From IMG/VR virus record IMGVR_UViG_3300035696_000009: a stretch of 64,000 bases of DNA, one strand, 5' to 3'. This document shows, piece by piece, positions 1 to 31,709 of this stretch. The position numbers and the translations under genes were made by a program. Within the stretch, counting starts at the first letter, position 1; every line of letters starts with the position of its first letter. The notes beneath the pieces were generated by a model. That model made no database searches and was not told the origin of the DNA. It saw only the letters and a list, made by a program, of their open reading frames with translations. This stretch comes from an uncultured virus (IMG/VR IMGVR_UViG_3300035696_000009). Taxonomy: Duplodnaviria; Heunggongvirae; Uroviricota; Caudoviricetes.

Positions 1-142
1 GAACCTCCGCCGAGAGGTTCGCGAGGATGGGCCTGCCACCGTACGCGAGTCCGATGTCCTTGATGCTGACGAGAACGTCCTTCAACTCGTAGGAGACGCG
101 AGCACCGTTCTGCCCGATCGGATGAAAAGCCTCGATTTGCAC
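1..142 (-). CDS. ABC transporter ATP-binding protein, N-terminal part (runs off window)
   Basis: Manual translation from GTG at 142: MQIEAFHPIGQNGARVSYELKDVLVSIKDIGLAYGGRPILANLSAEV, typical start of an ABC ATPase; permease gene upstream. Confidence 0.65.
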   Translation of the reverse strand, partial: MQIEAFHPIGQNGARVSYELKDVLVSIKDIGLAYGGRPILANLSAEV

Positions 143-145
143 TTG

Positions 146-520
146 TCATCCGTGCGAGAGGAGCACCATCACGAACTGACCGTCGCCCGTGACGAAGAAC
201 TCGTGGCAGATGACGTTCTCGACAGTGTCCGCTGTCTTGCTCATCATCTCCTCGATCTCCTCGGGATCGAGATCGAGAGAACCGAGCAAAACAGTCGTGA
301 GCTTGACGGGATAACCCGTCTCGCCGTCGCGATAACCGAGTGACAGCACGAGCTGCTTCGAGCTTTCGAGGTACTCGACACCCACACTCTTGATCGCCGT
401 AGTACCGGTACAAGAGAATTTCTCGACCTCGGTGGCGATCTTGTGCATCGCATCTCCGTACGGCATCCCGGCTTCTGAGATGAACACCTTGAACTTCGAA
501 TGGACTTGACCCTTGATCAT
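146..520 (-). CDS. hypothetical protein
   Basis: 124-aa ORF, purine-rich RBS upstream, fits operon packing. Confidence 0.75.
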   Translation of the reverse strand: MIKGQVHSKFKVFISEAGMPYGDAMHKIATEVEKFSCTGTTAIKSVGVEYLESSKQLVLSLGYRDGETGYPVKLTTVLLGSLDLDPEEIEEMMSKTADTVENVICHEFFVTGDGQFVMVLLSHG

Positions 521-547
521 GTTCTCTCTCCTTCTCTTTCGTGATTC

Positions 548-955
548 TCAACCCCAGCACTCGAGATAATTCTGTTCGGCATCCACGTCGTGAATCTCCT
601 TCGCGGCGTCGAGCAGGTAGAGGAAAATGTTGCCGTCGGTCTGCGTGTCGACTGGGACGAGCACGTCGTTCCCGGCTCTCAGGATCCAGCAGTCGTGGTC
701 GCGCTGGGTGTAGACGTGGCCGCTGTAGATCTCCTTACCTTCCTCGGCCATGGCCGACGTGATGGGTTTCGGCGAACGAACAATCGAGGAGCCCCTGCCA
801 GTGAGCTTGTCACCACCGGCAACCATCCAGTAGGAATCGCGCTCATCCTCGAGCGGGATCACTTTCCAACTGTCGACCCACCCGAGAGCCTCTTTGATGG
901 CTTTCTCGAGTGTGAAGTACTGGTCGATGGCGTCGTTGAGCTGCTTGGGATTCAT
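548..955 (-). CDS. hypothetical protein
   Basis: 135-aa ORF, ATGA overlap with upstream gene. Confidence 0.75.
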   Translation of the reverse strand: MNPKQLNDAIDQYFTLEKAIKEALGWVDSWKVIPLEDERDSYWMVAGGDKLTGRGSSIVRSPKPITSAMAEEGKEIYSGHVYTQRDHDCWILRAGNDVLVPVDTQTDGNIFLYLLDAAKEIHDVDAEQNYLECWG

Positions 956-1176
956 CTGGACTTCGCCTTCTTCTCTGCCCGGTCAAGGAGGATGGATTTG
1001 GCGAGATTGTCGAGAAGCATGACGAGATCGCAGCCGTATTCTTCTTGGATGGAAGAGCGGTCGGGTCTCATCTCTTTCACGCGAGCCTCCAGCCACCCGG
1101 CGATTGTGAGTAGTTCAGTCGGGAGCATCGAGTCGAGTGCGTCAGCGCCGTGTGTCTTTTTCGACGGTTCCGTCAT
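952..1176 (-). CDS. hypothetical protein (MTEPSKK...)
   Basis: 3' part of the 952..1857 ORF; ATG at 1176 overlaps the permease stop. Confidence 0.6.
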   Translation of the reverse strand: MTEPSKKTHGADALDSMLPTELLTIAGWLEARVKEMRPDRSSIQEEYGCDLVMLLDNLAKSILLDRAEKKAKSR

Positions 1177-1952
1177 TGTCGCTCCAGCGTGAGGCTCGCA
1201 TACGGGCAGAGGATGCGCCGAAGCCACGAGAGCGCGAGATCCTGGAGCACGCCGACGACGAGGACAAGGAGCTGGATCGCGAAGACGGCATCGAGCGCGA
1301 CGTGTTTGTCCTCGGCGAGCATCATCGAGCCGAGGCCGCCCTCGAAGCGGACGAGACCCTCGACGAGCGTGAGCATCACCCAGCCCATCGCCGCGTTCTG
1401 CCTGACGGCGTCGAGCACCGCGTCGAGATGGCCGAGCACGACGATCTCGACGACGGCGCCCCACGGCGACATGCGGAGCGTGCGCGCGTGGTCGAACTCT
1501 TCCTTCGGGATGGCCTCGACGACGTCGTAGAGGCTCGTCACGAGAAAGACGCCCATGCCGAACACGAGGAGCGCGACCTTGAGCGCGTGGCCGCCGCCAA
1601 AGGCGAGCGTGAAGGCGACCGTGAGGCCCGTGAGTCCCAAAAAACGCATCTTCGAGAGCGTGCGCACGAAGGGCCTCGCGGCTGGGAGCACCGTGAGGTA
1701 CGCGAGCGGAATCGTGAGCAGACACGAAAGACCGATGGCCTGGAAATTTGTCGTGAGGCTCACGAAGAGCTGCTGAGCGAGTCCCTGGTCCGCGAGCCGC
1801 GGGTACGCGCGAAGAACGTCCATAGGTCCGGGCATGAACGTCGGTCGCAGGCCCCACGCGATGAAGAAGAGCGCAACGGTGCCAGCACCGAGAATGAAGT
1901 GCACGCGCTTCGAGACGCGACCGTTGGGGATCCAGGCGTCGCGGAAGGCCAT
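1173..1952 (-). CDS. ABC transporter permease (NitT/TauT/SsuC-like)
   Basis: Several TM segments; EAA-like loop IPKEEFDHARTLRMS; GWVMLTLVEGLVRFEGGLG. Confidence 0.85.
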   Translation of the reverse strand: MAFRDAWIPNGRVSKRVHFILGAGTVALFFIAWGLRPTFMPGPMDVLRAYPRLADQGLAQQLFVSLTTNFQAIGLSCLLTIPLAYLTVLPAARPFVRTLSKMRFLGLTGLTVAFTLAFGGGHALKVALLVFGMGVFLVTSLYDVVEAIPKEEFDHARTLRMSPWGAVVEIVVLGHLDAVLDAVRQNAAMGWVMLTLVEGLVRFEGGLGSMMLAEDKHVALDAVFAIQLLVLVVGVLQDLALSWLRRILCPYASLTLERQ

Positions 1953-2104
1953 TAGGAAAGGTCCTTTAACAAGATGATCTCGAACCCATCGTGCTCTTCT
2001 CCATCGAAGATGACCTCTAGCTTGCGATCCTTCAGGATCTCGTTGACAGCGACGATGATGTTGAGCACGTCGTCGTCGTATTCGATTCTTGCCGTTTTGC
2101 TCAT
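1952..2104 (-). CDS. small hypothetical protein
   Basis: MSKTARIEYDDD..., AAGGA RBS upstream, stop abuts permease start. Confidence 0.55.
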   Translation of the reverse strand: MSKTARIEYDDDVLNIIVAVNEILKDRKLEVIFDGEEHDGFEIILLKDLS

Positions 2105-2149
2105 GCTCAGGTTTCCATCCTTCGTAGAGAAGTGATCTCGCTTCTTTCC

Positions 2150-2896
2150 ACTGTCCGGCCTTTCCACTCCCGTCCGATACGATCGCTTCCTATCCGATCG
2201 ATTCCGTTCCTGTTCTCCGGCCGCTCCAGTCCATTCATTTCATTCCTCTTCCGGCCCTTCCGTTTCCACTCCAGTCGACTCGCCTCCTATCGGGTCCGTT
2301 CCCTGTACTGGCCTGTCCTCTCGATTCCGCTATCCGGCCGATCCTGTTCCCTTCTTTCCTATCCTATCCTCTCCAGATACATTCCGCTTTTCCGGCCAGT
2401 CCGGTCGTCTTCGTTCCATTATCAACCGTTCCTGTACTTTCCTCTCCATTCCTCTCCATCCGCTCCCTTTTGACCGGCCGCTTCGTTCCCTCACGCCTCC
2501 GCTCGCTCCTATCCATTTTCCGACCAATTCTCGTTCCGGTCCTGTCCTATCCCTTACGATCCTTTCCTCGTCACTCCATTCCCATCGATTCCATTTCCGG
2601 CCGGTCCGTTCGATTCTGTTCCGTTCGGTTCCCCTACGATACATTCCGTTTTTCCGGCCAGTCCTGTCACTTCGACTCCAATACGTTCATGTCCCGTCCA
2701 ATCCATTACCGGCCGATCCGCTCCACACCGATCCCGCCACGTCCGTTCCGCTCGCTTCCAATCAGTTCCATTTACCGGCCGATCCATTACTCTCCTGTCG
2801 ATCCATTACTCTCCTGTCGGCTCCGTTACCGGCCGTTCCACTCCTATACCGTCCAGTCCTGTCCCTTCCTTTCCCCTATTACAGTCCATTCTTACG
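2150..2896 (-). repeat. Non-coding pentamer array (GGA-NN)n segmented by GGCCGG; candidate guide-RNA array
   Basis: Plus strand shows NN-TCC 5-nt periodicity; CCGGCC at 2155, 2217, 2251, 2334, 2392, 2474, 2597, 2654, 2709, 2775, 2829, with degenerate copies at 2308 and 2520; starts right after the stop of 2897..3487. Confidence 0.85.
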
Positions 2897-3487
2897 TTAT
2901 TCAGCAGCATCGATGTTGAGAGAGTCGTCGAAGCGCCTGAGCGCTCGCTTCACATCTGAAAGCAACGCCACAAGCGCTGACTGGTTGGCATCGATGGCGG
3001 CGAGCTGTGCCTCGGTCGCTCCGACCCAGGATCGTAGATACTGCGCGCGAATCCTTGCCAGAGCGTCACGATCCTCTTTCGTTTTGCGAATCTGCCGGAG
3101 AGGGCGGCGCCCCGCGTCGCGAGTCGCGGTCCTCGGCATGTGCACGAGCGAACGCGTCTGCACGCGGATGACCTTGCCAGGTTCTTGAGTGACGATGACT
3201 GAGATGCGGACCTCATTCATCAGATGGCCGATTTGGCTGATCCAATGTTGATGAGCAGCCTTCTCGACGTCACGTTCGAGGTAACGCCTCAACGGGTGTG
3301 ACTTGTCGGCGAGCACCTGTTCGAGCACAAACTCGGGTGTGAGCGAGTTTCGCCAATCTCCGCCGCCAGTCATCTCGGTGAAGATGATCCAGGCCTCACG
3401 GATCTCTTCGACCGTGTATTTGCCCCTCGCAGTGATCCTAGGGGCCCGCACTTTGTTGACGCGAGCCCCTTTCTTTGTCGACGTCAT
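2897..3487 (-). CDS. conserved phage-type protein, partner of the RAMP-like gene
   Basis: Motif LTPEFVLEQVLADKSHPLRRYLERDVEKAAHQHWISQIGHLM; translationally coupled to upstream gene (ATGA overlap). Confidence 0.75.
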   Translation of the reverse strand: MTSTKKGARVNKVRAPRITARGKYTVEEIREAWIIFTEMTGGGDWRNSLTPEFVLEQVLADKSHPLRRYLERDVEKAAHQHWISQIGHLMNEVRISVIVTQEPGKVIRVQTRSLVHMPRTATRDAGRRPLRQIRKTKEDRDALARIRAQYLRSWVGATEAQLAAIDANQSALVALLSDVKRALRRFDDSLNIDAAE

Positions 3488-4323
3488 GACACTTCGCCGT
3501 GGGACTGAGCACCGTTCGAGCGGCTCTTGCTTTTGTTCTTGCCACCACCCTTGATGCGCTCCATCTCTTCGTGCACCTGAGCTTGGGTAATGCCCTTGGT
3601 CTTCATTGCCGTCATGAGTGCGGGCGGGATGACGAGCCTACGCTCGGGTGAAGAGCAAGCCTTCATGATGCGATCGGTTTCGTTTACGTGAAGGCCCTTG
3701 ATCTTGAAAAAGCCGTACTCACCGTTCTTTTCCGTTCGCCAGTCGCCGAGACCGACCAGCTCGCCCATGGCGGAGAGCGCCCAGGCCACGTGTTCCATGG
3801 GAACCTGATCGACGATCACCTTGACGACGATTTCGATCATCCACTCATCGTAGCGCGGCCGTGCGCGGACGTCGGGAGTGCGGTTCGACCAAGAGCCGAC
3901 GCGGACGACGTCGTGCTGAAGTTCGGCTGTGGCGGCCTTGCGACCCTTTGGGTCGAGGATGGGAGAGGTGAAGCCCGTCACGCGAACCGCGCGCCGCATC
4001 GCCGAAGCGTTGAGTTGCTTTCGACTCGCGGCGACGGCCGTGAGCATACCGGCCTTGATCCATCGACAAGGGATCACCTCCTCGCCCCGCTCGTTGAATG
4101 CGTGGGCGTCCACGAACTCGCGCTCGAGATCCTTGGGTTCGCGTTCAGAGTCGAGAGGCGTACCGTCCTGGCGACAGCCGACCATCTTTTCGAGCATCTC
4201 GGTGAACGATTTCTGGCCGAATGCGTGGACCAGCATCGGACCGGTACCGATGAGCGCGTAGCAGGCACTATGTGCCTCGATGGAGGGCAGCTTCAGATTG
4301 ATGGACTTGTTTGATGAACGCAT
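3484..4323 (-). CDS. Cas7/RAMP-like RNA-binding protein (stand-alone)
   Basis: IPCRWIKAGM resembles the RAMP IPGSSLKG motif; C-terminal Gly-rich loop GELVGLGDWRTEKNGEYGFF; AAGGAA RBS before ATG 4323. Confidence 0.7.
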   Translation of the reverse strand: MRSSNKSINLKLPSIEAHSACYALIGTGPMLVHAFGQKSFTEMLEKMVGCRQDGTPLDSEREPKDLEREFVDAHAFNERGEEVIPCRWIKAGMLTAVAASRKQLNASAMRRAVRVTGFTSPILDPKGRKAATAELQHDVVRVGSWSNRTPDVRARPRYDEWMIEIVVKVIVDQVPMEHVAWALSAMGELVGLGDWRTEKNGEYGFFKIKGLHVNETDRIMKACSSPERRLVIPPALMTAMKTKGITQAQVHEEMERIKGGGKNKSKSRSNGAQSHGEVS

Positions 4324-4474
4324 GATTTTATAATTCCTTTCTCTTGTGATGATTCTTGTGTGGCGGTTACCTATCCGCACCTAGCAAGTCGATAGTCGTT
4401 ACGATGCTTGACGCAATAGCTCTTAGCTCTATTGAGGGAGCGCTACGCTCTCGGCGCCAAGGGTCATTCCCATT

Positions 4475-5080
4475 TCAGCCTCCGTCGTCCTCGTCGTCGT
4501 CATCGTAGACAACGCGACCTCGTTTCGTCGTGACCTCGTTGTTCTCGACGACGATCTTGCCGGTGTCGCTTCGGTCTTCTCCGACCCACTCGACTTCGCC
4601 GTTGAGCACGTAACCCCATTTCGCCAAGAAGTGATGGATCAGGTACTGGAGCCATTCGACGTAGTTGTAGAACTTCTCACCACCATCCCACTCGATCGCA
4701 GTGCCCTCCTCATTCGGTACCCATTGGCACCAGAGCCCCGGCTGTCCCTCGGGCGGTTCGTTGTAGTTGATGATCGAATCGTCTTTGCTCTGACCACCGA
4801 AGCCGGCGCCGCCGACGAAGTACGCCCCGCTCGGCCCGATGGGAAGACCAGTGGCAACGCGTGCCGGGTCCGGCATGCTGTTGCATGGGCTCCACCCATC
4901 TCCGGCTCCCGCTCGGTAAGCGTTCCGCTTGATCTTCTCAAGGCGACCTGCGTCCATGTCTTCTTGGGTCAAGCGCTCCATTCGCCGCGTCTCTCCGAAC
5001 GCTCGGAGATACTGTGTGTGCTCCGGCTTGAGCGGCTTGTCGATCTTGAACTCGCCTGAGAAATTTGTCGTGTAGCCCAT
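4475..5080 (-). CDS. conserved phage-type hypothetical protein
   Basis: MGYTTNFSGEF...PGLWCQWVP...WDGGEKFYNYVEWLQYLI. Confidence 0.75.
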   Translation of the reverse strand: MGYTTNFSGEFKIDKPLKPEHTQYLRAFGETRRMERLTQEDMDAGRLEKIKRNAYRAGAGDGWSPCNSMPDPARVATGLPIGPSGAYFVGGAGFGGQSKDDSIINYNEPPEGQPGLWCQWVPNEEGTAIEWDGGEKFYNYVEWLQYLIHHFLAKWGYVLNGEVEWVGEDRSDTGKIVVENNEVTTKRGRVVYDDDDEDDGG

Positions 5081-5083
5081 GTA

Positions 5084-6865
5084 TCACTCCGCCGTGCCCA
5101 TGATGACGTCGACGCGGCGGTTCTTGCTGCGCCCGGCTTCCGTGTCGTTCGTCGCGACGGGCTTGTCCTGCCCGAACGCCTTGACGGTGAAGCGGTCGGC
5201 GGGGAAGTTCGTCGTCGACTGCTTCATGAGCCAGTCCTTGACCGCGTTCGCGCGGCTCTGCGAGAGCGCCTTGTTGCCGGACGCGTCGCCCGTGTTGTCG
5301 GTGTGGCCGTCGATCTCGATGACGAGGTCGGTGATGACGAGGTCCTTCTCGAGCGCGTCGAGGGTCTTCTGCGCGTCGGGGGAGAACGCGGCGCTGCCGG
5401 TCTGGAACGTGATGCTCCAGCTCTTCTTCGAGACGACGCTCGTGATGGCAGCGCCGCTCTTGAACGTGGCGACGTCCGCGGACGTGGTCGCGACGGGAGC
5501 CTTCTTCAGGAGGTCCTCGACGTAGGACGTGTCGAGCACGTCCGAGACGGGCGGGTAGCTCCCCACGATCTTCGGGTACTGCTGGACGGCGATGTCGCCG
5601 AAGGTCGTGTACGTGGCGGCGAAGAGGTTCACGGACCCGGGCGCGAGGCCGAAGACCTGCGCGTTGTCGGCGAGGTCCGAGACCGACGAGCCGCCGAGCG
5701 GCACCATGAGCCCCTGCTTGTCTTTCTCGGTCTCGCCCTTGAAGTAGCGAACCCAATACGGGCCGTCGGATTCCTTGTAGACGGCGGCGCTGATCTCGCC
5801 GGCGCGCGCGAGCGCGTCGGGGTACGCGCGGACCTGGTCGGCCGCGTCGAAGGACGCCTGGAGGATGCCCTCGACGACGTCGCGGTGGAGCCGATCCCAC
5901 TTCTTGATGCCGATGAGCGCGCACGGCATCTGGCTCCGGTACTCCTTGGTCGAGACGATCGACTGGAGGCCGCCCTTCTGCTGCGCGACGTTGACGTCGC
6001 CGGGCGTCCACGTGACGACGGCGTTCACGCACACGTTCTTGGTCTGGCCCGTGCGGCGCCCCTGGTGCACGACGGGACGGTCCTCGCAGACGCCGAGGAT
6101 GTACTTCTTCGGGGCCTCGAGAAAGTTGTCGACGTTCACCCAGTTGAGCGCGTCGGGGTCGTACGTCGTCTCGTCGGGGTTATTGAGGATGCCGTTGTCG
6201 CCGGCCCATTTCATGGCGACGTTCCAGTCGCCGTCGCGGATCACGCCGGCGATGAGCGCGCCCTGGGCCTTCTTCGGGCTGTCCTTCCACTCGGCGGGGC
6301 CCATGAACTTGTCCTCGCCGCGCGAGTAGCCGAGGACGCCGACGGTCTCGGCGGTGCAGTCGGCGCAGATCTTCTTCAGGTCCGCGTTGAGCCCAGCGAA
6401 CCAGCTCGGAGTGCCGTCGCCCATGAGCGTGATGAAGTGCACGCCGTCCGTCCCCTCGATGTTCTTGGCGACGTTCTTCGCGAGGGCCATGAGCTGAGCG
6501 GCCATCTTGCTGGTGTCGTCCTCGCGGGTGAAGTGGAGGTTCACGTTGCGTGCAGCCATGAGCGAGCCCTGCGTCGTGTCGGCGCCGCCGTTCGCGTAGA
6601 GCAGGCCCATCTGCGCGTTCCACGCCCACACCATCGCGCGCACGTCCGTACCCTTGCCAGTAGCGACGGTGCCCGGGAGCGGCGTCTTCGGGACCGACGC
6701 GCTCTGCACGGTGTTCTCTTTCAGCGTCGGCAGCTCCGCCGTCTTCGGGACCTCGGCCTCATGTCCGGGCATCTTGCCGACGACGGCCCGGATGCCGAAG
6801 AAGAGTCCCACTGCACCGAGGATCGCGATGAGGACGACGGGCCCACGCTTGATTCTGATCGCCAT
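5084..6865 (-). CDS. substrate-binding-domain / OmpA C-terminal domain fusion protein
   Basis: N-terminal TM anchor; C-terminal OmpA motifs [33 protein letters not shown]. Confidence 0.85.
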
Positions 6866-7128
6866 GTTCCTTCTCTTTCTTTTTCCCGGCCGCGTTTCCT
6901 GGGCGCGATCCGAGCAACGGATTCAGACGGTGGAGATTCCGCCGCAGCTCATGCCTTGGCGAGGCCTTGGGACAGCCTCTTGGCAGTCGCATTTCGGATC
7001 GCCGCATCGAACCTGCAGCCGATCCCAGGTGGGGACGACGTGGAGCCCTCCGTGATGCTTCGCCAAGCAACACCGGACAGTCATGGCCGGAATCTTGGCG
7101 TTGCATAATTTCTTGGTCTTGGGGGACC

Positions 7129-8178
7129 TCATCGCTTCGCGTCCTTGTTCTCGAACAGTTCCGAGAAGCTGTCGGGCGAGACCTCCTCCTCGCCGACGCG
7201 CACGTTCTTCACCGTCGACGTTGCGTCGGTCGAGACGCGCACGTTCGGGTTCTTGCCCTCCTTCTCCCACTTCTCGAGCTGGGCGAGCGCGCTGTCCTCG
7301 TACGCGAGGTTATCGAGGTCGGCGCCGTTGATCATGCTCTTCGAGACCTCCATGAAGTACTCGATCTGTCCCATCTTCTCGGAGTAGTCCTCGGCGAGCT
7401 TGTCGAGCGTCTGGTCGTAGAGTTCCTTCTCGGCCCCGCCCGACGCCATCATCTTCTGCGCGCGCTGGAAAGCGGAGAAGCCCTTCGTGACCATCTTGTA
7501 CTCCTCGGTCCGGAGCTTCACGTCCGCCTGGATGTCCTGCATGAGCATCGACGAGGTGTCGCGCATCTTCTTGAGCGCCTTGAGGAGGTTGTCCATCCGG
7601 ACGAGGAGCGCCGAGAGCGTCTTGTTCGAGGCCTCGAGACGACCGGCCTGCCTGCCCGAGAGCTGCATCTGGCCGCGCATGTCGGCGGCGTTGTCGCCGC
7701 CCTGCTCCATGATCTTCTTGGCCTGCGCGGCGCGCTGAAGCTCGTGGACGCGCTCCTCCTCGTTCTTCGAGATGAAGGACGCGAGCTGGTCGCGCTGCCC
7801 CTGGAGGCTCCCGATGGCCTCCTCCATCTCCGAGAGGCGCTCCTTGAGGCGCGCGACGTACGTGTTGAGGATCCCGATCGGGTCGATGTCGATGAACTGC
7901 CGCGTGAGCCAGCGCGTGAGCGACCGGTACCCGTAGAGCGCGAGCGTGCGCATCTTCGGGTCGAGCACCACCCAGAGCATGGCGCCGAGCGCTGCGCATG
8001 CGCCCGCGAGCTTGAGGGTGTTCGTCGCCATCTCGAGCAGGAACGGGACGATGAGGCCCCAGTAGTAGATCCCGGTCGCGGCAATCGCGCCGACGAGGAG
8101 GAGGGTCACGAGGTTCCGGCCCCACGCCTCGCGGGACTTGAGGAGATCCGACATCTTGTTCGATTCGGTCATGGTCAT
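7129..8178 (-). CDS. membrane-anchored PspA/IM30-like coiled-coil protein
   Basis: Two N-terminal TM helices, then IDPIGIL and a long coiled coil; ATGA overlap at 8175-8178. Confidence 0.65.
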   Translation of the reverse strand: MTMTESNKMSDLLKSREAWGRNLVTLLLVGAIAATGIYYWGLIVPFLLEMATNTLKLAGACAALGAMLWVVLDPKMRTLALYGYRSLTRWLTRQFIDIDPIGILNTYVARLKERLSEMEEAIGSLQGQRDQLASFISKNEEERVHELQRAAQAKKIMEQGGDNAADMRGQMQLSGRQAGRLEASNKTLSALLVRMDNLLKALKKMRDTSSMLMQDIQADVKLRTEEYKMVTKGFSAFQRAQKMMASGGAEKELYDQTLDKLAEDYSEKMGQIEYFMEVSKSMINGADLDNLAYEDSALAQLEKWEKEGKNPNVRVSTDATSTVKNVRVGEEEVSPDSFSELFENKDAKR

Positions 8179-8837
8179 GCTTTCGGCATCGCGTCGATGC
8201 GGCGCTTCTGGTCTTCGAGTCGCGAGACAACCTGCGCGTGGGCGGCGTTGAACCCACCGAGCACGGCGTCGAGCCGGTGGGCCTCGTCCTGCATGTTCTG
8301 GATGTCGGTCTCGCGCTTCGTCTTGAGCGATGCGATCTTCTCCTGGATAGCCTTGATCTGCTCCTCGCTCGACGCGATAAGCTGCTCGCTCGCGGTGATG
8401 GCTTCCTGGGCCGCGCCGATCTTCTTGTCCCGGGCCTCGTTGAACGAGTGCTGGAACTCGTCCTTCGCCTTCTGCATCACCGAGAGGAGCTGGTCGAGCG
8501 CGCCCGTCACGTCGGCGGGCGTCGTGTGCGTGGTCTTGAGGGCGACCTTGAAACGCGTGCGCTCGTCGGAGATGTCCTCCTTGAGAAGCTCGTACTGCTC
8601 CATGAACGCGGCGTACGGCGCGGGACACGCGGCCTGGAGCCTGGTCTCGAGCTTGGCGAGGGCCTGCGCGTCGGGCTGGGCGGCCCCGGCCTGGCGGAGG
8701 ACGTCGTGCGCCTCTTGCTGCGCGCGGTGCATCTCGGCCGGGAGCGGGGTGTTCCGCGCGGGCTTGTCGGGGACTTCCTCGGCGACGATGTTCTTCAGGA
8801 ACCCGAACACCGACGTCCTCTTCGCTGCGTCCGTCAT
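8175..8837 (-). CDS. coiled-coil hypothetical protein (MTDAAKRTSVFGFLK...)
   Basis: Coupled start at 8837; heptad-rich C-terminus. Confidence 0.7.
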   Translation of the reverse strand: MTDAAKRTSVFGFLKNIVAEEVPDKPARNTPLPAEMHRAQQEAHDVLRQAGAAQPDAQALAKLETRLQAACPAPYAAFMEQYELLKEDISDERTRFKVALKTTHTTPADVTGALDQLLSVMQKAKDEFQHSFNEARDKKIGAAQEAITASEQLIASSEEQIKAIQEKIASLKTKRETDIQNMQDEAHRLDAVLGGFNAAHAQVVSRLEDQKRRIDAMPKA

Positions 8838-9028
8838 TTGCCGATCCTTTCGCCGAGCCAGCCCTCGACCGCCCGCGTGACGGCGTCGGAGACGGAGCAG
8901 TCCTCCTCGACGCACTGGAGGCGCAGGCGCCTCACGGTGTCGTGCGGGAGGTGGACCGCGAGCCTCTTGCCGCCCTCGGGGCGTCGCCGCCGGCTGGCCC
9001 CGTTCGTCGTCTTCTTCCGTTTACTCAT
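8834..9028 (-). CDS. ribbon-helix-helix (CopG-like) regulator
   Basis: KRLAVHLPHDTVRRLRLQCVEEDCSVSDAVTRAVEGWL. Confidence 0.7.
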   Translation of the reverse strand: MSKRKKTTNGASRRRRPEGGKRLAVHLPHDTVRRLRLQCVEEDCSVSDAVTRAVEGWLGERIGK

Positions 9029-14957: not shown

Positions 14958-14978
14958 TTCCAAATTCTGATATTTGGG

Positions 14979-15053
14979 CGGACCCGGCCGGGCTCGAACC
15001 GGCGACCTGCGAGTTCTACAGTCTCGCTGCTCTGCCTACTGAGCTAAGGGTCC
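14979..15053 (-). tRNA. atypical tRNA (Tyr-GTA-like, 9-nt anticodon loop, short variable arm)
   Basis: GGACCCT TA GCTCAGTAGGCAGAGC A GCGAG ACTGTAGAA CTCGC AGGTC GCCGGTTCGAGCCCGGC CGGGTCC. Confidence 0.7.
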
Positions 15054-15087
15054 TAGTTTTATCGGATTATGAGTAATGCTAATTCAG

Positions 15088-15168
15088 TGCGCGAAGATGG
15101 GCTTGAACCACCGACCCTCACCCTACACCAAGATGCAGGATGATGCTCTACCACTGAGCTATTCGCGC
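15088..15168 (-). ncRNA. tRNA-like RNA with anticodon arm replaced by a long hairpin
   Basis: Normal acceptor, D and T arms; TCATCCTGCATCTTGGTGTAGGGTGA in place of the anticodon arm. Confidence 0.7.
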
Positions 15169-15171
15169 AGG

Positions 15172-15223
15172 CGGGGACGGCTGGACTCACACCAGCGCTG
15201 CAGCTTACCTGCAAGGCGTCCCC
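15172..15223 (-). ncRNA. mini tRNA-like RNA (acceptor + one hairpin + T-like arm)
   Basis: GGGGACG...TGCAG GTAAG CTGCA..GCTGG TGTGAGT CCAGC CGTCCCC. Confidence 0.5.
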
Positions 15224-15224
15224 A

Positions 15225-15300
15225 TGGAGCCCTCTCACCGAGTCGAACGGCGGACCTCTCATTTAGATAAATGAGTGCTCTAACACTGAGCTAAGAGGGC
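15225..15300 (-). tRNA. atypical tRNA with 8-nt anticodon loop (TTATCTAA), CCA encoded
   Basis: GCCCTCT TA GCTCAGTGTTAGAGC A CTCAT TTATCTAA ATGAG AGGTC CGCCGTTCGACTCGGTG AGAGGGC TCCA. Confidence 0.7.
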
Positions 15301-15316
15301 GTGACTGCGTTTCTCG

Positions 15317-15610
15317 TTATTTGAGCAAGGGGAGCGACGAGAGGTGTCGCCTGAGGTCCTCCTTTCTCCCCGGCACGACGCCGATGGCCATGAGCGCGCC
15401 GCACCACGGCGCGTCGGGTTCACGGATCGTCACGTGCGGGACGGAAGCCTTCGCGAGCCGCCCTGCGACGGCCGCGAGCGAGGGCTCGTCCGGCACCGCG
15501 AGCACGATGGCGTGCGTGTTCTCCGGCAGGTTTCCTGGGCTCGACTCCCCGGCCGCGTGCACCAACATGGCGCCCTGCAGGCCTCTCGGGAGGTCTCCCC
15601 TGACGATCAC
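15317..15610 (-). CDS. peptidyl-tRNA hydrolase, Pth2-like
   Basis: VIVRGDL.RG.Q..M..HAA, IVLAVPDE, IREPD, AIGVVP, LSSLPLL; true start probably slightly upstream. Confidence 0.8.
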   Translation of the reverse strand: MIVRGDLPRGLQGAMLVHAAGESSPGNLPENTHAIVLAVPDEPSLAAVAGRLAKASVPHVTIREPDAPWCGALMAIGVVPGRKEDLRRHLSSLPLLK

Positions 15611-16586
15611 GAAGTGGGTCAGGGGATTCGCAACGGTTCGGCGTTCCGCCGATTCACTGTAGGAGCGAGCAGGTCATGGGCTCGAGTGTAGCCATGGGCC
15701 TCTCGCCGTCAACCCCCTCACAAGTTCTCGTTCACCCACTTCTCGAAGAGATCGCGGACGACGGAGTAGGAGTAGTCCTTGGAGAACCGCCCCTCCTTGC
15801 CCGGCCTCGCCTTGATGGTCGGGGCGATCGCGAGGCAGAACTTTTCGAGCGGTTCCCTGTCCCCGTTGGTCCAAGATAGCGGAACGACGACGTCGACCCT
15901 GCTCGCCATGGCACGAGCCTCGCGCGGGCGAAGCCCCGGTGTCAATCTCCGCCAAAATTCGTCGCAGAAAAGTTGGCCCACCCCGGCCGCGGCATTATGG
16001 TCGCCGGTCCCAACCAAGGAGCCACCGGATGAGAGGTGTCTTGAAGCGCGTCGTCAGCCGCAAGAGGGACAAGGGCGGCAAGAGGTCGGAGTGCGTACTC
16101 GCGTGCGGGCACGTCGTCAGGCGGAGCATCTCGAACGTCTCCGAGCATTGCTACTGCACCGAGTGTCCGCCCACGGAGACGAAGGCGGAGCGGTCGGCCC
16201 GCCTCTCGCGCGAGCGGAGGGAGCGGAGGAAGAACCTCGCGCTCAATCTTCGTCGTCCTCCTGGGTGATTCGCTTGTGGCGGCGCGGCAGCGCCTCCTTC
16301 CGGCTCTCCTCCGGCAGGAACTTCGCCGCGTTCTCGAACTTCGCGAGGAGCACGCGCTCGCTCGAGACGACGGCGGCGCCGCTGCCGAGGCGCTTGGCGT
16401 CGCGGAAGGCGTCCTCGATGTTCTCGCGCCACATGCCGAAGGTCTTCTTCTTGCGGTGCTCGGCGCGGTAGGGGCCCGTGACCTTGAGGGTCGCGACGAG
16501 CGGTGGTCGGTTCGTCTTCGGCCGCGGCCGGTTGATGTGGAGGGTCATCACCATCATCGCGAGCGTTAGCACAATGGAACCCGTCG

Positions 16587-19329: not shown

Positions 19330-19399
19330 GCCTCGAGATTACCATCCGCTGCGCAGCCGGCCAAAAAGGAGCATTTCTGGTACGAGGTGACGATCTGCT

Positions 19400-19951
19400 A
19401 TGTTCGGGGCGTTGGACAAGAGAGACACGCGCAGGGAACCCGAGCAGAGAGCAAACCACCGCATCCGCGTCCCCGAGGTCCGCGTCATCGGTGCGGACGG
19501 CAAGATGATCGGTGTCATGAAGACGCACGAGGCCGTGGCGCAGGCCAAGGCCGCGGGGCTCGACCTCGTCGAGGTGGACCCGCGCGCGCAGCCGCCCGTC
19601 TGTCGGGTCTGCGATTTCGGCAAGCTGAAGTACGACAAGAAGAAGGAGGACGCGCGCAGACGCGCCTCGCAGGTCGTCGTCGAGACGAAGGAGATCAAGC
19701 TCCGCCCGAAGACCGGCGACCACGACATCGCCCACATGGTGGCGCGCGCCCGCACCTTTCTCGGCGAGCGGCACAAGGTGAAGTTCACGGTCCGGTTCCG
19801 GGGGCGCGAGATCACGCACCCCGAGAAGGCGCGCGAACAGCTCGACCTCGTGCTCGCGCAGATCGCGGACCTCGCGATCGTGGAGCAGGGCGCCTCGATG
19901 GAGCAGCGCGCGATGTACTTGCTCGTCGGACCGAAACCTCTGCGAGGATGA
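19400..19951 (+). CDS. infC: translation initiation factor IF-3
   Basis: NHRIRVPEVRVIG, LDLVEVDP...PPVCRVCDFGKLKY, KEIKLRP, KVKFTVRFRGRE. Confidence 0.95.
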   Translation: MFGALDKRDTRREPEQRANHRIRVPEVRVIGADGKMIGVMKTHEAVAQAKAAGLDLVEVDPRAQPPVCRVCDFGKLKYDKKKEDARRRASQVVVETKEIKLRPKTGDHDIAHMVARARTFLGERHKVKFTVRFRGREITHPEKAREQLDLVLAQIADLAIVEQGASMEQRAMYLLVGPKPLRG

Positions 19952-27010: not shown

Positions 27011-28702
27011 TCACCCCCGCGCGAACTCCGCCATGATGCTCGGCGCCGTCGTGTCGAACCCGATCACGTTGAGCGACCTCGGGTTCTTGCCGACGTCCTT
27101 CATCCATTCCGAACCGGGCTGGGCGATGGTGTACTCGGTCGCCGTCATCCCGACGACACAGATCTTGGCGTCCCGACCCGACTTCTGCCGGTACTGCTCG
27201 AGCGCCTGGAACGGGTGGACTGCCCCGGCCCACGTCTCGTTGTCCGTGTAGACGTGGAAGACGTCGACGGCGAGGTTGTGCTTGGTCGCGTGGAGCATCG
27301 GCAGGGCGCAGTCCGTCCCTCCGAACGGCAGGCCCGAGATCGCCTTGACGACGTCGTCGAGCCTCTGGCGCGGGCTGACCTTCAGCTCGGTGACGCCGGA
27401 CGGGTCGCCGCCGTGCATCCCGCCGTAGCCGCGCCCGCCGGACGTGAACCCGACGCACGCCCAGTTCTTCTCGGCGCGCGCGGTGACCATCGCCATCGCT
27501 GCGCTGGCCTCGCGGCACGTGAGCGAGGTGCCGCCTATGGGCGTGCCCATCGAGCCCGACACGTCGAGCGCGAGGAACGTCGCCTTGCCCGTCGGCTCGA
27601 TCACGTCGAAGCTCGCGTAGAAGGCGTCGTCGAGCGCGTCCACGACGGCGCGCTCCGGCGTCCACGAGAGCGAGCCCTTCAGGCCGTGCCCTCCCGCGTA
27701 GGTCTTCATCGCGTAGAGGACGGTCATCGGATGAACGCGTCCCTTCTTGAGCGCGGCCTTGTCGGCGAGCTTCTCGGCGATGAGCTTCGTATGCTCGCCC
27801 ATCGGCTTCGTCATTCCGAGGCTCGAGAGCTTGCCGAGGTTCCTGATGAGCGCAGTCGGGCCGATGTGCTCGAGGAGCGCCTCCCACACGATCTTCTCGT
27901 TCTTCATCTCGTTCGGGACGCACTCGTGGGGGAGCCTGAACTCCGAGATGAGGCGCGCCGCGCGGCCGGGCGTGACGCCGGCCGAGTGGATCTCCTCGAA
28001 CGCGGCGATGATCGCCGGGAGCTTGTCCTTGTCGTGCGCCTTGTCGCGCGCGTGCTTCTCGCGCTTCTCCGACATGCCGGCCATACCGACGGTCACGTAG
28101 CGCATGATCGCCGCGTGCTCGGGGGTCTTGGGCGTCGGGTGCGCGAGGCGCAGGACGTCCCGGTGCGCCCAGCCGTCCCTCTGCTGGTACTTGATGCAGT
28201 CGTACGCGAGGTCGCTCGCGGTCTTGTCGTTGTACCACTTGGCGACGGCGGTCCTCAGCGACCGGCCCCAGCGCCGGAAGTACTCGACGTCTGCGGCGAA
28301 GTGGAAGAGGTGCGTGCCGATGCGGCACACCTTCGGCAGCGCGGCGAGCGCGGCCTGGCGCGTCGCGGGGCCGTCGGCCCCGGCGCACATCGCGAGCGCG
28401 AAGATGGCGGGGTCGTTCTTCGGCGCGCGGCCCCCGTCCGAGATCTCGACGATGCGCGCGACCGTGCGCGGCCCGTCGGCCCTGATGCACTCCTCCACGG
28501 CCTTCGAGGCCTGGATCGTGTGCTCCTTCTCGCCAGCGTAGTACGTGCCGCCCTCGGTTCCGAGAACGAGGAACCTGTCGAGGCGCTGCCAGCAGTCGAG
28601 CTGGAAGACGAAGCCCCCGGCGTTGTTCTCCACCTGGTCGGGGCGGGCCTTCTCGCGCTGCGGGGTGGAGAGGTTCGAGACGTGGGTCGAGTAGCGTGTC
28701 AT
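27011..28702 (-). CDS. rsr: Ro60 / TROVE-domain RNA-binding protein
   Basis: NNAGGFVF, RFLVLGTEGGTYY, KYQQRDGWAHRDVLRLAHP, LALDVSGSM (vWA MIDAS), GGTDCALPM, YTDNETW. Confidence 0.97.
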   Translation of the reverse strand: MTRYSTHVSNLSTPQREKARPDQVENNAGGFVFQLDCWQRLDRFLVLGTEGGTYYAGEKEHTIQASKAVEECIRADGPRTVARIVEISDGGRAPKNDPAIFALAMCAGADGPATRQAALAALPKVCRIGTHLFHFAADVEYFRRWGRSLRTAVAKWYNDKTASDLAYDCIKYQQRDGWAHRDVLRLAHPTPKTPEHAAIMRYVTVGMAGMSEKREKHARDKAHDKDKLPAIIAAFEEIHSAGVTPGRAARLISEFRLPHECVPNEMKNEKIVWEALLEHIGPTALIRNLGKLSSLGMTKPMGEHTKLIAEKLADKAALKKGRVHPMTVLYAMKTYAGGHGLKGSLSWTPERAVVDALDDAFYASFDVIEPTGKATFLALDVSGSMGTPIGGTSLTCREASAAMAMVTARAEKNWACVGFTSGGRGYGGMHGGDPSGVTELKVSPRQRLDDVVKAISGLPFGGTDCALPMLHATKHNLAVDVFHVYTDNETWAGAVHPFQALEQYRQKSGRDAKICVVGMTATEYTIAQPGSEWMKDVGKNPRSLNVIGFDTTAPSIMAEFARG

Positions 28703-28776
28703 GGCAAATGTTCCTTTCCGAGGAATGACGCGGCGGTGGTACCCGACGCGAGGGCTGCCGTCAAACTGACAGCCCG

Positions 28777-28864
28777 TGGCGGAAATCGGAGAGCACGATT
28801 CTCAGCGCCTTTCGACGCCGCATGGTTTAGCAAACCAGCCCCGCACCCTGCGGGTTCGATTTCC
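28777..28864 (-). tRNA. tRNA-Ser(GCT)
   Basis: Loop TTGCTAA, long variable arm, GCCA end. Confidence 0.8.
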
Positions 28865-29374: not shown

Positions 29375-29389
29375 GTTCCGAGATTACAG

Positions 29390-29463
29390 TCGGAGTGACA
29401 GGATTTGAACCTGTGATCTCTCGGCCCCCAGCCGAGCGCTCTACCAGACTGAGCCACACTCCG
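29390..29463 (-). tRNA. tRNA-Pro(GGG)
   Basis: CTCGG CTGGGGG CCGAG; canonical D and T arms. Confidence 0.9.
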
Positions 29464-29500
29464 AGACGCCGCGTGTTCTGCGCGGCGCGCGTCGCGGTTT

Positions 29501-30034
29501 TTACACCGCGACGCTACCCGTCCAGGGTTCCCACTCGAGAGGGATGTCCCTCATCGCGAGGACGGGCTGCGCGAGGGGGAGGGTCTTGGGCTTGAAGGGC
29601 TTGCGAATGAGCTTCATCTTCGCCTGCTCGGGGGTGCGGGCGCCCTTCTTGTCGTTGCAGTCGTAGCAGCTCGTGACGATGTTCTCCCAGACCGTTTTGC
29701 CGCCCTGCACGCGGGGCAGGACGTGGTCGTAGTTGAGTTCGGACATCGCGAACTTGTTGCCGCAGTACTGGCAGACGAAGTTGTCACGGGCCATGACGTT
29801 GACCCTCGAGAACTTCACGCCCTTCTTGTGCGTCGCGACTGGCTTGAGCAGGCGCGCGACGGCCGGCATCTTCATCGTGATGCCGCGCTCGGCGTTGTGG
29901 TAGACAACGACGTCGTCGTACCATCGGAGGATCTCGACCTTGTCGGTGAAAAGCTCCGTGATGGCCTCCTGCCAGGTGCTGACCCTGTGCGGGAGCATGT
30001 AGTGGTTGAGGATGAGGGTGGTCGTGGGGGACAT
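29501..30034 (-). CDS. HNH endonuclease (McrA-like)
   Basis: FSRVNVMARDNFVCQYCG...DHVLPRVQGGKTVWENIVTSCYDCNDKKG. Confidence 0.95.
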   Translation of the reverse strand: MSPTTTLILNHYMLPHRVSTWQEAITELFTDKVEILRWYDDVVVYHNAERGITMKMPAVARLLKPVATHKKGVKFSRVNVMARDNFVCQYCGNKFAMSELNYDHVLPRVQGGKTVWENIVTSCYDCNDKKGARTPEQAKMKLIRKPFKPKTLPLAQPVLAMRDIPLEWEPWTGSVAV

Positions 30035-30053
30035 GGCAAATCCGTTTCGGGGC

Positions 30054-30129
30054 TGGTAGGCGCACAAAGAGTTGAACTTTGATTTGCTCCTTATCAGAGA
30101 GCCGTCCTAAACCGTTGGACGATGCGCCC
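30054..30129 (-). tRNA. tRNA-Ile(GAT)
   Basis: GCTCT CTGATAA GGAGC; ACCA end. Confidence 0.85.
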
Positions 30130-30180
30130 GAGTTGTAGTTCGCAGTGACGTGTGAAGTGAAGATAACAGACCAAGATCCG

Positions 30181-30254
30181 TGGACACGTGCGGAGGTGCG
30201 CCGCTCTTTACGCGCTTATAAGACGCGCTTCTGGTAACTCCCAGAGACGTGTCC
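30181..30254 (-). tRNA. tRNA-Ile(TAT), degenerate T loop
   Basis: CGCGT CTTATAA GCGCG; acceptor GGACACG/CGTGTCC. Confidence 0.6.
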
Positions 30255-30256
30255 GC

Positions 30257-30332
30257 TGGTAGGAGGTATGGGGATCGCACCCATCGAGACTACCTTGTCG
30301 AGGTAGCGTGTTCACTAGCTCACTCACCTCCC
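30257..30332 (-). tRNA. tRNA-Val(GAC)
   Basis: CTACC TCGACAA GGTAG (C33); ACCA end. Confidence 0.75.
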
Positions 30333-30336
30333 GTGG

Positions 30337-30411
30337 CGGTAGGTCCAGACCGATTCGCACGGTCATCTTCTCCGTGTGGGGGAGACATCCTACGTGTTGG
30401 ACGATGGACCC
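30337..30411 (-). tRNA. tRNA-Val(CAC)
   Basis: TCTCC CCCACAC GGAGA (C33). Confidence 0.75.
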
Positions 30412-30414
30412 GAG

Positions 30415-30490
30415 TGGTCAGAGTGCCCGGATTTGAACCGGGATAACGTGCACCCGAAGCACGTGTACTACCAGATTGTACGACACTCTG
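30415..30490 (-). tRNA. tRNA-Pro(CGG)
   Basis: CGTGC TTCGGGT GCACG; ACCA end. Confidence 0.9.
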
Positions 30491-30518
30491 ATGGTGCAGA
30501 CATGTACCACGTCCGCGC

Positions 30519-30589
30519 TGGTTGGGGTAGACGGTAACGCTCCGCCGTTTCGAGCTTCAAAGGCTCGATTGCCGCTTCGGCATACCCCA
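30519..30589 (-). tRNA. tRNA-Gln(TTG)
   Basis: CGAGC CTTTGAA GCTCG; atypical T loop. Confidence 0.7.
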
Positions 30590-30613
30590 TCACAATTATC
30601 AAAAAGAAAGAAT

Positions 30614-30692
30614 CGGTACCAACGGAGGGATTCGAACCCACACTGCCCTGATCCTGAGTCAGGTGCCTCCTACCAAGTTGGGCTACGTTGGC
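30614..30692 (-). tRNA. tRNA-Leu(CAG), short variable arm
   Basis: CCTGA CTCAGGA TCAGG. Confidence 0.85.
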
Positions 30693-30712
30693 GCGGTCGA
30701 CGTGGTCTGACG

Positions 30713-30782
30713 TGGTCGCGGCAGACGGGATCGAACCGTCGCGTTCAGCCTTATGAGAGCCGACGCACTCCAAGTTGCCGCG
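30713..30782 (-). tRNA. tRNA-Met(CAT)
   Basis: CGGCT CTCATAA GGCTG; short D arm; ACCA end. Confidence 0.75.
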
Positions 30783-30855
30783 GCCCCCTCGCTGCGACTC
30801 GAACGCAGCCAACGACCATCGGAGGGTCGTGCCATGATCCGCATGGACGAGGGGA
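30783..30855 (-). tRNA. tRNA-Arg(CCG)
   Basis: CGACC CTCCGAT GGTCG; CTGCGTTCGAGTCGCAG. Confidence 0.75.
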
Positions 30856-30932
30856 GGTGCACGTCCTCTTCGCCGCCCGACGTGCAGGGGGTCGTTTCTC
30901 ACGATCGGAGGATTGGTTACCCCCACGGCCCA

Positions 30933-31008
30933 CGGCCTCCTCGGCAGGGGTCGAACCTGCATCTCACGGTTCCGTAGACCGGTGCCTTGTCCATTGGGCC
31001 ACGAGGAG
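30933..31008 (-). tRNA. tRNA-Arg(ACG)
   Basis: CCGGT CTACGGA ACCGT. Confidence 0.85.
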
Positions 31009-31135
31009 AAATGAAGAAGGAGCTGGGGCCGTGACTAGCGATCCCTGGTCCTGCCGCGCGCTCGGTGAGTCACCACGAAGACCAGGGTTTCAATCCGGTG
31101 TGGACCGTACGCGTGACATCGCCACTCCCACTTCG

Positions 31136-31206
31136 TGCTCCCGGCGTGATTCGAACACGCAGCATGCGGACTAGAAAACCGCTGTCTGATCCATCAGAAC
31201 GGGAGC
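31136..31206 (-). tRNA. tRNA-Arg(TCT)
   Basis: GCGGT TTTCTAG TCCGC. Confidence 0.75.
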
Positions 31207-31207
31207 A

Positions 31208-31279
31208 TGGAGAGCCCGGAGGGGATTGCACCCTCGAAGTCGGTTTTGCAGACCGGCTGCCGCGCTAGCGAACGGGCTC
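31208..31279 (-). tRNA. tRNA-Cys(GCA)
   Basis: CCGGT CTGCAAA ACCGA; TCCA end. Confidence 0.75.
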
Positions 31280-31280
31280 A

Positions 31281-31355
31281 TGGAGCGGATAACGGGGATC
31301 GCACCCGTCTGAACTTCGTTGGCAACGAAGTGCCTCACTAGTCGGCCTTATCCGC
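31281..31355 (-). tRNA. tRNA-Gly(GCC)
   Basis: CTTCG TTGCCAA CGAAG; TCCA end. Confidence 0.85.
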
Positions 31356-31369
31356 ATATTTGATATTTG

Positions 31370-31440
31370 AGCGGGTGAGGGTAATCGAAACCCCACCTTC
31401 GCGTTGGGAACGCGTTGCTCGACCCTCGAGCTACACCCGC
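31370..31440 (-). tRNA. tRNA-Gly(CCC)
   Basis: ACGCG TTCCCAA CGCGA. Confidence 0.85.
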
Positions 31441-31451
31441 GAATTCTTCGT

Positions 31452-31526
31452 CGGAGCGGATGGTCGGATTCGCACCGACGCTCCAAGGCTTGGAAGGCCT
31501 GGCGACCACTGCAGTCTTTCACCCGC
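31452..31526 (-). tRNA. tRNA-Gly(TCC)
   Basis: CAGGC CTTCCAA GCCTT. Confidence 0.8.
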
Positions 31527-31530
31527 GCGT

Positions 31531-31631
31531 TGGCGGCGCCGTGGGCCTCTCACCCACCCTCCGCAGAGTGCTTTTCAGCTCGCCCGCCCGTGCACGGTCA
31601 GGTCCGCCTAGCTCCTGGGAGCGGCTGCGCC
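31531..31631 (-). ncRNA. tRNA-like RNA without a recognisable anticodon arm
   Basis: GGCGC...GTGGG TGAGAGG CCCAC GGCGCC GCCA. Confidence 0.45.
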
Positions 31632-31633
31632 AG

Positions 31634-31705: not shown

Positions 31706-31709
31706 GAAT

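Follow-up and report, generated by a model that had tools for sequence, protein, structure and literature searches.

The window, that is, the whole 64,000-nucleotide (nt) stretch of DNA analysed here, comes from the uncultured virus IMGVR_UViG_3300035696_000009 (Caudoviricetes) and carries, on its minus strand, the gene for a protein A, the gene for a protein B and an array of 5-nt repeats, in that order. The array fills the intergenic region 2100-2900. A preliminary description, made from the letters alone, had noticed the repeats and had decoded their variable dinucleotides as codon positions 1-2 of three protein-like motifs. We interpret the region as a VIPR (Viral Interference Programmable Repeat) guide-RNA array on a large phage-like element from peat, with a rough probability of 0.85. 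The assignment is made because the structural model of protein A is Csm3/Cas7-like, because protein A is homologous to gp039 of phage SUSP1, and because the residues that contact the repeat bases G1 and G2 align between the two proteins. One of the guides, U1, is an exact gapped in-frame match to the coding sequence of (F/L)TREELYE(M/I)VW, the start of a DNA-binding-like domain in a family carried by plasmids and phages. The features of the region are as follows.

1952-2105, minus strand: small open reading frame (ORF) of 50 amino acids (aa) from ATG 2105, just downstream of the array
2100-2900, minus strand: predicted vrRNA array of about 12 abutting GGA-NN guide units
2155-2216, minus strand: unit U1, 11 repeats, with plus-strand dinucleotides TT AC CG GA GA CT TA GA AT GT TG
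2217-2250, minus strand: unit U2, short, 34 nt
2251-2307, minus strand: unit U3, with one 6-nt step (the unit decoded earlier as a LysR wing)
2308-2333, minus strand: unit U4, short, 26 nt, opened by CTGGCC
2334-2391, minus strand: unit U5, steps irregular
2392-2473, minus strand: unit U6, about 14 repeats
2474-2596, minus strand: unit U7, double, 123 nt, without internal CCGGCC
2597-2653, minus strand: unit U8, phase regular
2654-2708, minus strand: unit U9, phase regular
2709-2774, minus strand: unit U10, 12 dinucleotides, phase regular (decoded earlier as a kinase motif)
2775-2828, minus strand: unit U11, holding a 19-nt direct duplication
2829-2900, minus strand: unit U12, the first unit on the RNA strand, beginning directly after the stop codon of gene B
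2897-3487, minus strand: vap candidate, protein B, 196 aa, conserved partner of vipr; the gene ends at the array
3484-4380, minus strand: vipr, protein A, ORF of 298 aa from GTG 4380

The repeats read NN-TCC on the plus strand and GGA-NN on the minus strand, and because the flanking genes all lie on the minus strand, we read the array RNA as GGA-NN. On the plus strand, 73% of the bases of 2100-2900 are pyrimidines (A100 C319 G120 T262). TCC occurs 87 times in this region, and the distances from one TCC to another peak at 5 (n=29), 10 (n=16) and 15 (n=10). The 400-nt bins of the array contain up to 48 TCC and 0-1 GGA on this strand, against a window mean of 8.1 TCC (standard deviation (sd) 4.7), and the lag-5/10 autocorrelation score reaches 0.225 in the array against a window-wide mean of -0.013 (sd 0.031). 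This periodicity is far beyond chance. Besides TCC, the pentamers carry TAC, TCG, ACC, CCA and TCA, and the step is occasionally 4 or 6 nt instead of 5. The third base of the triplet is A in 42 of the 44 steps of the form GGxNNGG, while the usage of the two free bases is near even (first base A12 C12 G10 T10; second base A14 C15 G4 T11). Tandem Repeats Finder returned only fragments of the array because its copies share only 3 of 5 bases, and a repeat scan of the array detected no direct repeats of CRISPR size.

The sequence CCGGCC occurs 11 times within the array, together with one CTGGCC, and 56 times across the whole window. Cutting at these marks gives about 12 units, which range from 26 to 123 nt in length and mostly measure 54-66 nt; we infer that the marks (GGCCGG on the RNA) are the unit boundaries. 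On the RNA strand, a unit consists of an A-rich start of 4-7 nt, 9-14 pentamers and GGCCGG; the majority have 11-14 pentamers, two units are short and one is double. The units abut (...GGATC GGCCG GTAAT GGATT...), with only the A-rich stretch of 4-7 nt after GGCCGG between them. In U11, an exact 19-nt direct duplication was observed at 2780-2819, with two copies of CGATCCATTACTCTCCTGT, which may be a trace of unit growth or origin.

At the RNA level, an Rfam search of positions 1-9000 gave no match to the array at E <= 1, and at gathering scores the whole window yielded tRNAs only. A scan of 1800-3700 detected no sigma-70-type promoter-like site and no same-strand terminator; the single terminator-like site in this interval lies on the wrong strand. 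The array RNA folds with z = -2.6 relative to shuffled sequences, a signal that probably comes from the GGCCGG marks pairing with one another. The stretch occurs in peat metagenomes, and positions 1900-4400, array included, are letter-identical in contigs of four peat sequencing runs; no RNA runs are listed among the sequencing runs that contain the stretch.

Protein A is listed in its public database form with 279 aa, the start of which we placed by arithmetic at ATG 4323. It matches phrog_4652 and no Pfam family, and no close relatives were confirmed in genome contigs, although relatives of the element are represented by database proteins at 87-89% identity. Its AlphaFold model has a mean pLDDT of 87.9. 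A Foldseek comparison of this model with the PDB gave 131 chains at E <= 0.001, with Csm3/Cas7 RAMP chains on top at a probability of 1.00, among them 9ash_F (8.8e-7) and 6ifn_E (1.2e-6), the latter being the Cas7 query chain of the VIPR discovery paper (Methods section 18, 10.64898/2026.04.26.720920). On this model, protein A is predicted to fold as a small Cas7/Csm3-like RAMP protein.

The family profile of protein A (A3) matches SUSP1 gp039 over residues 3-192 (E 1.9e-21, 63.3 bits). In SUSP1, the gene for gp039 (195 aa) has one GGY/NN tract on its upstream side and three on its downstream side; we infer that it is the experimentally studied Vipr, as it is the sole candidate and fits the tract description of the paper. 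The text of the structural study reports one protomer per repeat, in which H17 and D177 hold G1, and R138 and W178 hold G2 (10.64898/2026.04.26.720927). By alignment, the equivalents of H17, R138, D177, W178 and R179 in protein A are H, R, D, W and R. The thumb arginine (the R138 equivalent) aligns, and the G-loop of protein A reads GLGDWRTEKNGEYGFF, with the motif GxGDWR common to SUSP1 gp039.

The third base of the SUSP1 triplet is reported to sit in a pocket formed by E71, M72, C173, T175 and R179 that is said to exclude purines (10.64898/2026.04.26.720927). At the columns corresponding to E71/M72, the window and locus L017 have R/W, and L015 has Q/W (L numbers denote the loci compared here). 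Most loci with a GGY triplet show [IVTM][GA] at these columns, and the GGY locus L040 also has W; the alignment is uncertain in this part. The difference at these columns is a lead only as to how the third base is read. The roughly 70 C-terminal residues of protein A (3484-3690) are extra; they are helical, and they are absent from L005, L010 and L015. A tblastn match of protein A to L017 extends to residue 287, which suggests that the L017 homologue probably has the C-terminal extension too.

The partner gene is conserved: the protein B profile matches ORFs in 76 of 84 vipr-bearing loci. Protein B matches phrog_15946 and no Pfam family. The model of protein B (pLDDT 75.4) contains three helices and a beta wing, and its C-terminal part is a long helical hairpin. 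Foldseek found nothing at E <= 0.001 for protein B, the best match being at E 0.14 with weak winged-helix hints, and VIA-align matched only the generic C-terminal helical hairpin. The 50-aa ORF at 1952-2105, beyond the other end of the array, has neither a Pfam nor a PHROG family.

The same module is present in many other phages. A search of viral contigs with an alignment of protein A gave 161 relatives, 80 of which were fetched; with L005, L010, L015 and the window, they make up the 84 A-bearing loci. L005 (a 273,770-base contig), L010 and L015 were found by a scan of viral contigs for the array pattern, and homologues of A and B adjoin their arrays. A strongly 5-nt-periodic array is present in 75 of the 84 loci, and in all 75 the G-rich strand is that of gene A. 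Relative to the two genes, the array may follow B, precede A or lie between them, and most of the nine array-less loci end (locus or contig) soon after the genes. Of the fixed triplets, GGY is found in 55 loci, GTT in 6 and GGA in 5, and 9 loci are mixed; among the GGA arrays, that of the window is the purest. Among the 1615 4-nt steps inside 90 arrays, GGCAGG is the commonest (636), and the GGC-N-GG mark is therefore a punctuation common to arrays. In L010, the array (GGA strand) ends in a hairpin and a T-run just before the ribosome-binding site of the next gene. A neighbour-joining tree without support values places the window, L017 and L005, all GGA, together with the GTT loci, which is weak evidence for a grouping of the GGA loci.

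Cultured phages also carry the module, among them the Gordonia phages ODay and UmaThurman, and tblastn found protein A in 27 Mycobacterium phage records. The module is present in cultured Gordonia and Mycobacterium smegmatis phages, whose arrays are unannotated or called as genes. In UmaThurman (L098 5625-5948), an array beside the vipr homologue, gene 39, is annotated as a gene for a hypothetical protein, gene 40, which is probably a mis-annotated vrRNA array.

VIPR has been described as a small RAMP protein, Vipr, with an accessory vap gene and guide RNAs (vrRNAs) of 9-16 YNNGG repeats (10.64898/2026.04.26.720920). According to the text of that preprint, the NN of each repeat base-pairs with double-stranded DNA, one target base being skipped per repeat (the '1-nt skip rule'), and the skipped base is mostly the wobble position of a codon. 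Targets lie on either strand and need no protospacer-adjacent motif (PAM), and binding represses the transcription of rival phages, satellites and prophages (10.64898/2026.04.26.720920). By analogy with these published homologues, the minus strand of the window would be transcribed and cut into about 12 vrRNAs of 9-14 repeats, and one Vipr protomer per repeat would bury the GGA triplet and present NN. The latter would pair with one strand of the target DNA, leaving one unpaired base after each pair (NNx NNx), and the bound filament would keep a rival mobile element from being transcribed. Within a coding sequence, the base left out would be the wobble base, so that silent mutations would not free the target.

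The targets of the units were searched with gapped patterns in which each fixed triplet was replaced by one N. The plus-strand reading of NN is the right query because the plus strand pairs with the minus-strand RNA. The U1 pattern of ten dinucleotides gave six exact matches in 596 Gb of genome contigs and six in metagenome contigs; one contig is in both collections, which leaves 11 distinct sites. In 10 of these, the site is the N-terminal motif TREELY(D/E)(M/I)VW of one protein family, with every NN at codon positions 1-2. Three sites match the eleventh pair too (22/22). For comparison, simple arithmetic with uniform base composition predicts about one chance match of this pattern in the 596 Gb genome collection. 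The hosts of the 10 family sites range from 36 to 64% GC and carry the labels Bacteroidetes, Alpha-/Gammaproteobacteria, Dehalococcoidia and Chitinophagaceae. In viral contigs, a shorter U1 seed of eight dinucleotides gave 24 matches, and the frame with NN at codon positions 1-2 (frame 0) was the longest open frame in 16. Eleven of the 24 come from one 100-aa family, QFTRD[DE]LYDGL..., and none of these viral matches extended over the last three pairs.

In the target family of U1, the motif stands in the context ...ISDVGLxKxCxRLxIPxPxRGYW.... The domain TREELYE(M/I)VW...ISDVGLAKxCxRLxIPxPxRGYWxK (L137-L148, L167, L169) was observed at the N-terminus of proteins of 260-400 aa from many phyla. 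The family has no Pfam model and occurs on 117 plasmid and 13 phage records. A plasmid-like record named 'Synechococcus phage' matches U1 at 19/22, and in Salmonella phage Munch the domain is C-terminal in an HNH nuclease. No TREELY domain was found in the window itself (best E 0.28).

Three further units were searched in viral contigs, namely U3, U10 and U12; the remaining ones were compared with 709 kb of local DNA, that is, the window minus the array plus 98 loci. For U10, a seed of nine dinucleotides gave no matches, and one of eight gave 8 matches with at most 4 of 8 further bases matching, frame 0 being the longest in 3 of 8. Seeds of eight dinucleotides gave 10 loci (11 sites) for U3, with no further bases testable and frame 0 longest in 2 of 11, and 13 matches for U12, none of which extended and of which one had frame 0 longest. 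The mixed frames of these seeds, which are of the same length as that of U1, indicate that the in-frame result of U1 is not a by-product of the method. In the local DNA, seven units searched with skips of 0-3 reached at best 15-18 of 20-24 bases, no better than 20 shuffles of each. The local search detected no self-target in the 64 kb, and at the loci of the TREELY family the other units gave no match above shuffles.

These results bear differently on the three decodings of the preliminary description. The strings on which they were built are exact: that of U1 (2161-2215) and that of U10 (2715-2774, ga gc ac ga cg cg gt gc ct aa gt at) follow from 5-nt stepping from CCGGCC, and that of U3 (2257-2306, ct (g)tt ac ag ac cc ta gg gt ct) includes the single 6-nt step. 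The translation of the dinucleotides into peptides, done for the plus strand only, is arithmetically correct. The proposal of a gapped NN-x-NN-x code that skips the wobble base was right in kind and matches the published '1-nt skip rule', with one of the three decodings supported. The likeness of U1 to TREELYExVW was borne out at 10 of the 11 distinct exact sites, in all 10 with the gap at codon position 3 as foreseen. In contrast, in viral contigs the kinase VAxK motif read from U10 and the LysR wing read from U3 gave chance-like numbers of matches in mixed frames, and the U10 matches did not extend beyond the seed. The minus-strand RNA and the protein-RNA module were not recognised in that description, which nonetheless reached from raw sequence alone the VIPR logic published in 2026. 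Because that logic is in print (preprint April 2026), the finding of the array is real but known in kind.

The strongest alternative accepts a VIPR array but holds that the U1 match is coincidental, the GGA type using another skip length or non-coding targets. We consider this improbable: 10 of the 11 exact 20-base sites fall on the same motif, family and frame across distant taxa, three of them reach 22/22, about one match of the 20-base pattern is expected by chance, and the residues that position the repeat are conserved. Nevertheless, several observations weigh against our interpretation of the region, and some of them speak for coincidence. Only one of the four units searched in public collections (U1; not U3, U10 or U12) has a coherent target. 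The U1 pattern of ten dinucleotides had no match in viral contigs, and none of the U1 matches comes from a peat phage or a clearly rival element. The U1 matches could merely equal a common peptide word, and F-T-R-D/E-D/E-L-Y-D/E occurs in unrelated proteins too. The shuffled controls and the comparison with skips of 0, 2 and 3, a check suggested in the preliminary description, cover the local 709 kb, where they gave no excess at any skip of 0-3 and no difference among skips. Taken over the array, the composition of NN fits codon positions 1-2 (log-likelihood -187.0) better than positions 2-3 (-212.9) or 3-1 (-228.7), yet a uniform model scores at least as well (-185.8). The repeat here is GGA (42/44) and that of SUSP1 is GGY, so the skip rule has been transferred from a system whose third base is different. 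In addition, about 45 nt of handle and tail hairpins lie between one SUSP1 tract and the next, whereas the units of the window have no 3' tail or pseudoknot, and protein B is not homologous to SUSP1 gp038 (vap1; E 0.06).

A sponge RNA that titrates a CsrA-like or TRAP-like ring protein was our initial reading of the array, suggested by 87 GGA with no UCC on the RNA strand and by about 11 triplets per unit, 5 nt apart, as in a TRAP site. We abandoned it once phages proved to differ in their triplet and the conserved partner proved to be a RAMP protein, which is no homologue of CsrA or TRAP. Related phages have GGC, GGT or GTT in the place of GGA, so it is not GGA itself that is conserved. Rfam gave no CsrB/RsmZ-type match either, and we regard this explanation as very improbable. 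Least probable of all is a role of the array as duplex DNA, for example in packaging, as a centromere-like site or as iterons to which protein B binds: the weak winged-helix hints of protein B and the location of the module near capsid or terminase genes in L005 and L010 would suit it, but the Gordonia phages carry the module in early/accessory regions and not in the packaging module, a 5-bp period with three fixed bases suits a single-strand reader, and in published work homologous arrays are transcribed and co-purify with Vipr.

Within the VIPR interpretation, a more specific proposal is that the window represents a natural GGA/NN lineage, with about 12 head-to-tail guides, GGCCGG in place of tails, and at least one guide aimed at the conserved TREELY motif. 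We put this forward tentatively, as a possibility that is rather doubtful when taken as a whole. If it is true, the Vipr of the GGA lineage must accommodate adenine in a position from which the SUSP1-type pocket reportedly bars purines, and the (F/L)TREELYE(M/I)VW guide would amount to motif-level broad-spectrum silencing across hosts of 36-64% GC. The exact in-frame match of U1 to one motif in very different genomes illustrates how broadly the wobble-skipping code can reach.

The window seems to be a fragment of a very large phage. Protein A is also found on a 218,816-base contig, and 7 of 10 ORFs around the array have PHROG matches. The genes of the window include IF3, Ku, Ro60, HNH and NUDIX, many ORFs are without a family, and no capsid or terminase gene was detected in the window. 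At 14977-16529 and 29389-34734, ARAGORN identified 35 tRNA genes (28 by Rfam); almost all of them are minus-strand genes, and most amino acids are represented. Near them are IF3 (19391-19951) and a weak PTH2-like ORF (15317-15673). This set comprises translation genes of the kind seen in very large phages. One of the ARAGORN tRNAs (15225-15300, minus strand) has a four-base anticodon, atct, and an Rfam tRNA score of 50 bits; this may point either to a tRNA akin to frameshift suppressors or to a mis-called loop.

A Ro60/TROVE protein with a vWA domain is encoded at 27011-28801 on the minus strand (Pfam 3.9e-54 and 4.2e-37; phrog_850); at gathering scores, Rfam listed no Y-RNA family. ORFs with a GmrSD N-terminal domain (42777-43136), a RiboL-PSP HEPN domain (44734-45513) and a PLD-like domain (38598-39545) are clustered, and they may be defence or counter-defence genes of the same element.

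Among known systems, the TRAP site and the CsrB/RsmZ sponges share with the array a triplet spacing of about 5 nt, about 11 triplets per unit and a GGA-rich RNA. This likeness is superficial: no related protein is present here, and the triplet varies between phages. The Cas7/Csm3 backbone of class 1 CRISPR systems (type III-A Csm, PDB 6IFN chain E) is alike in its RRM core, in its glycine-rich loop and in forming a protein filament along a guide RNA with pairing broken periodically. However, its period is 6 nt with five pairing bases, whereas that of VIPR, which is phage-encoded, is 5 nt with two pairing bases. No cas genes or Cas families and no CRISPR repeat-spacer array were found among the neighbours of the array.

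The closest studied system is the type II VIPR of SUSP1 (Vipr, vap1 and vrRNAs). In both, the Vipr proteins are homologous, with the same G-loop and G1/G2-contact residues, and the arrays consist of tandem pentamers with a fixed triplet and a free NN, about 9-16 per guide. Both systems are phage-borne, with intergenic arrays next to vipr on the same strand, and the one-base-skip, wobble-skipping rule is obeyed here by one guide, U1. Besides the triplet and the tails, they differ in that SUSP1 has 1 + 3 guides and the window about 12 in one array, in that the partner is gp038 in SUSP1 and the unrelated protein B in the window, and in that protein A has about 70 extra C-terminal residues; the window system is known from sequence alone. 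In SUSP1, perturbations of the triplet are reported to have abolished silencing, GGY>GGA being among the changes tested (10.64898/2026.04.26.720920).

Regarding the diversity of the family, the discovery preprint distinguishes seven VIPR types, which include tail-less 'staggered arrays' (fig. S18 legend; 10.64898/2026.04.26.720920), and the abutting units of the window may be such an array. NNNGG, YNNNG and NNNNG repeats are also described there (Methods section 20, 10.64898/2026.04.26.720920), and non-canonical arrays with the triplets GAC/NN, CAC/NN, WGT/NN and TGH/NN have been presented in section 2.3 of 10.64898/2026.10.21.760802. These non-canonical arrays and that of the window have in common a 5-nt repeat, a fixed triplet other than GGY and an adjoining Vipr-like fold, and ANNGG would fall under 'NNNGG' as worded in the preprint. 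The text of 10.64898/2026.04.26.720920 does not name GGA/NN as a natural repeat, its one mention being the SUSP1 mutant, and GGA is not named in the main text of 10.64898/2026.10.21.760802. As these papers allow 'a related consensus' besides GGY, GGA departs from the canonical VIPR type and not from the family. Three results reach beyond the text in print. The window has a near-exclusive GGA array, which together with L017 and L005 amounts to a natural experiment on third-base reading by Vipr; one of its guides has an exact in-frame match to a conserved protein motif in very different genomes; and the module occurs in cultured Gordonia and Mycobacterium smegmatis phages. Worth following are the GGA repeat, the tail-less array of 12 guides and the motif-level target of U1.

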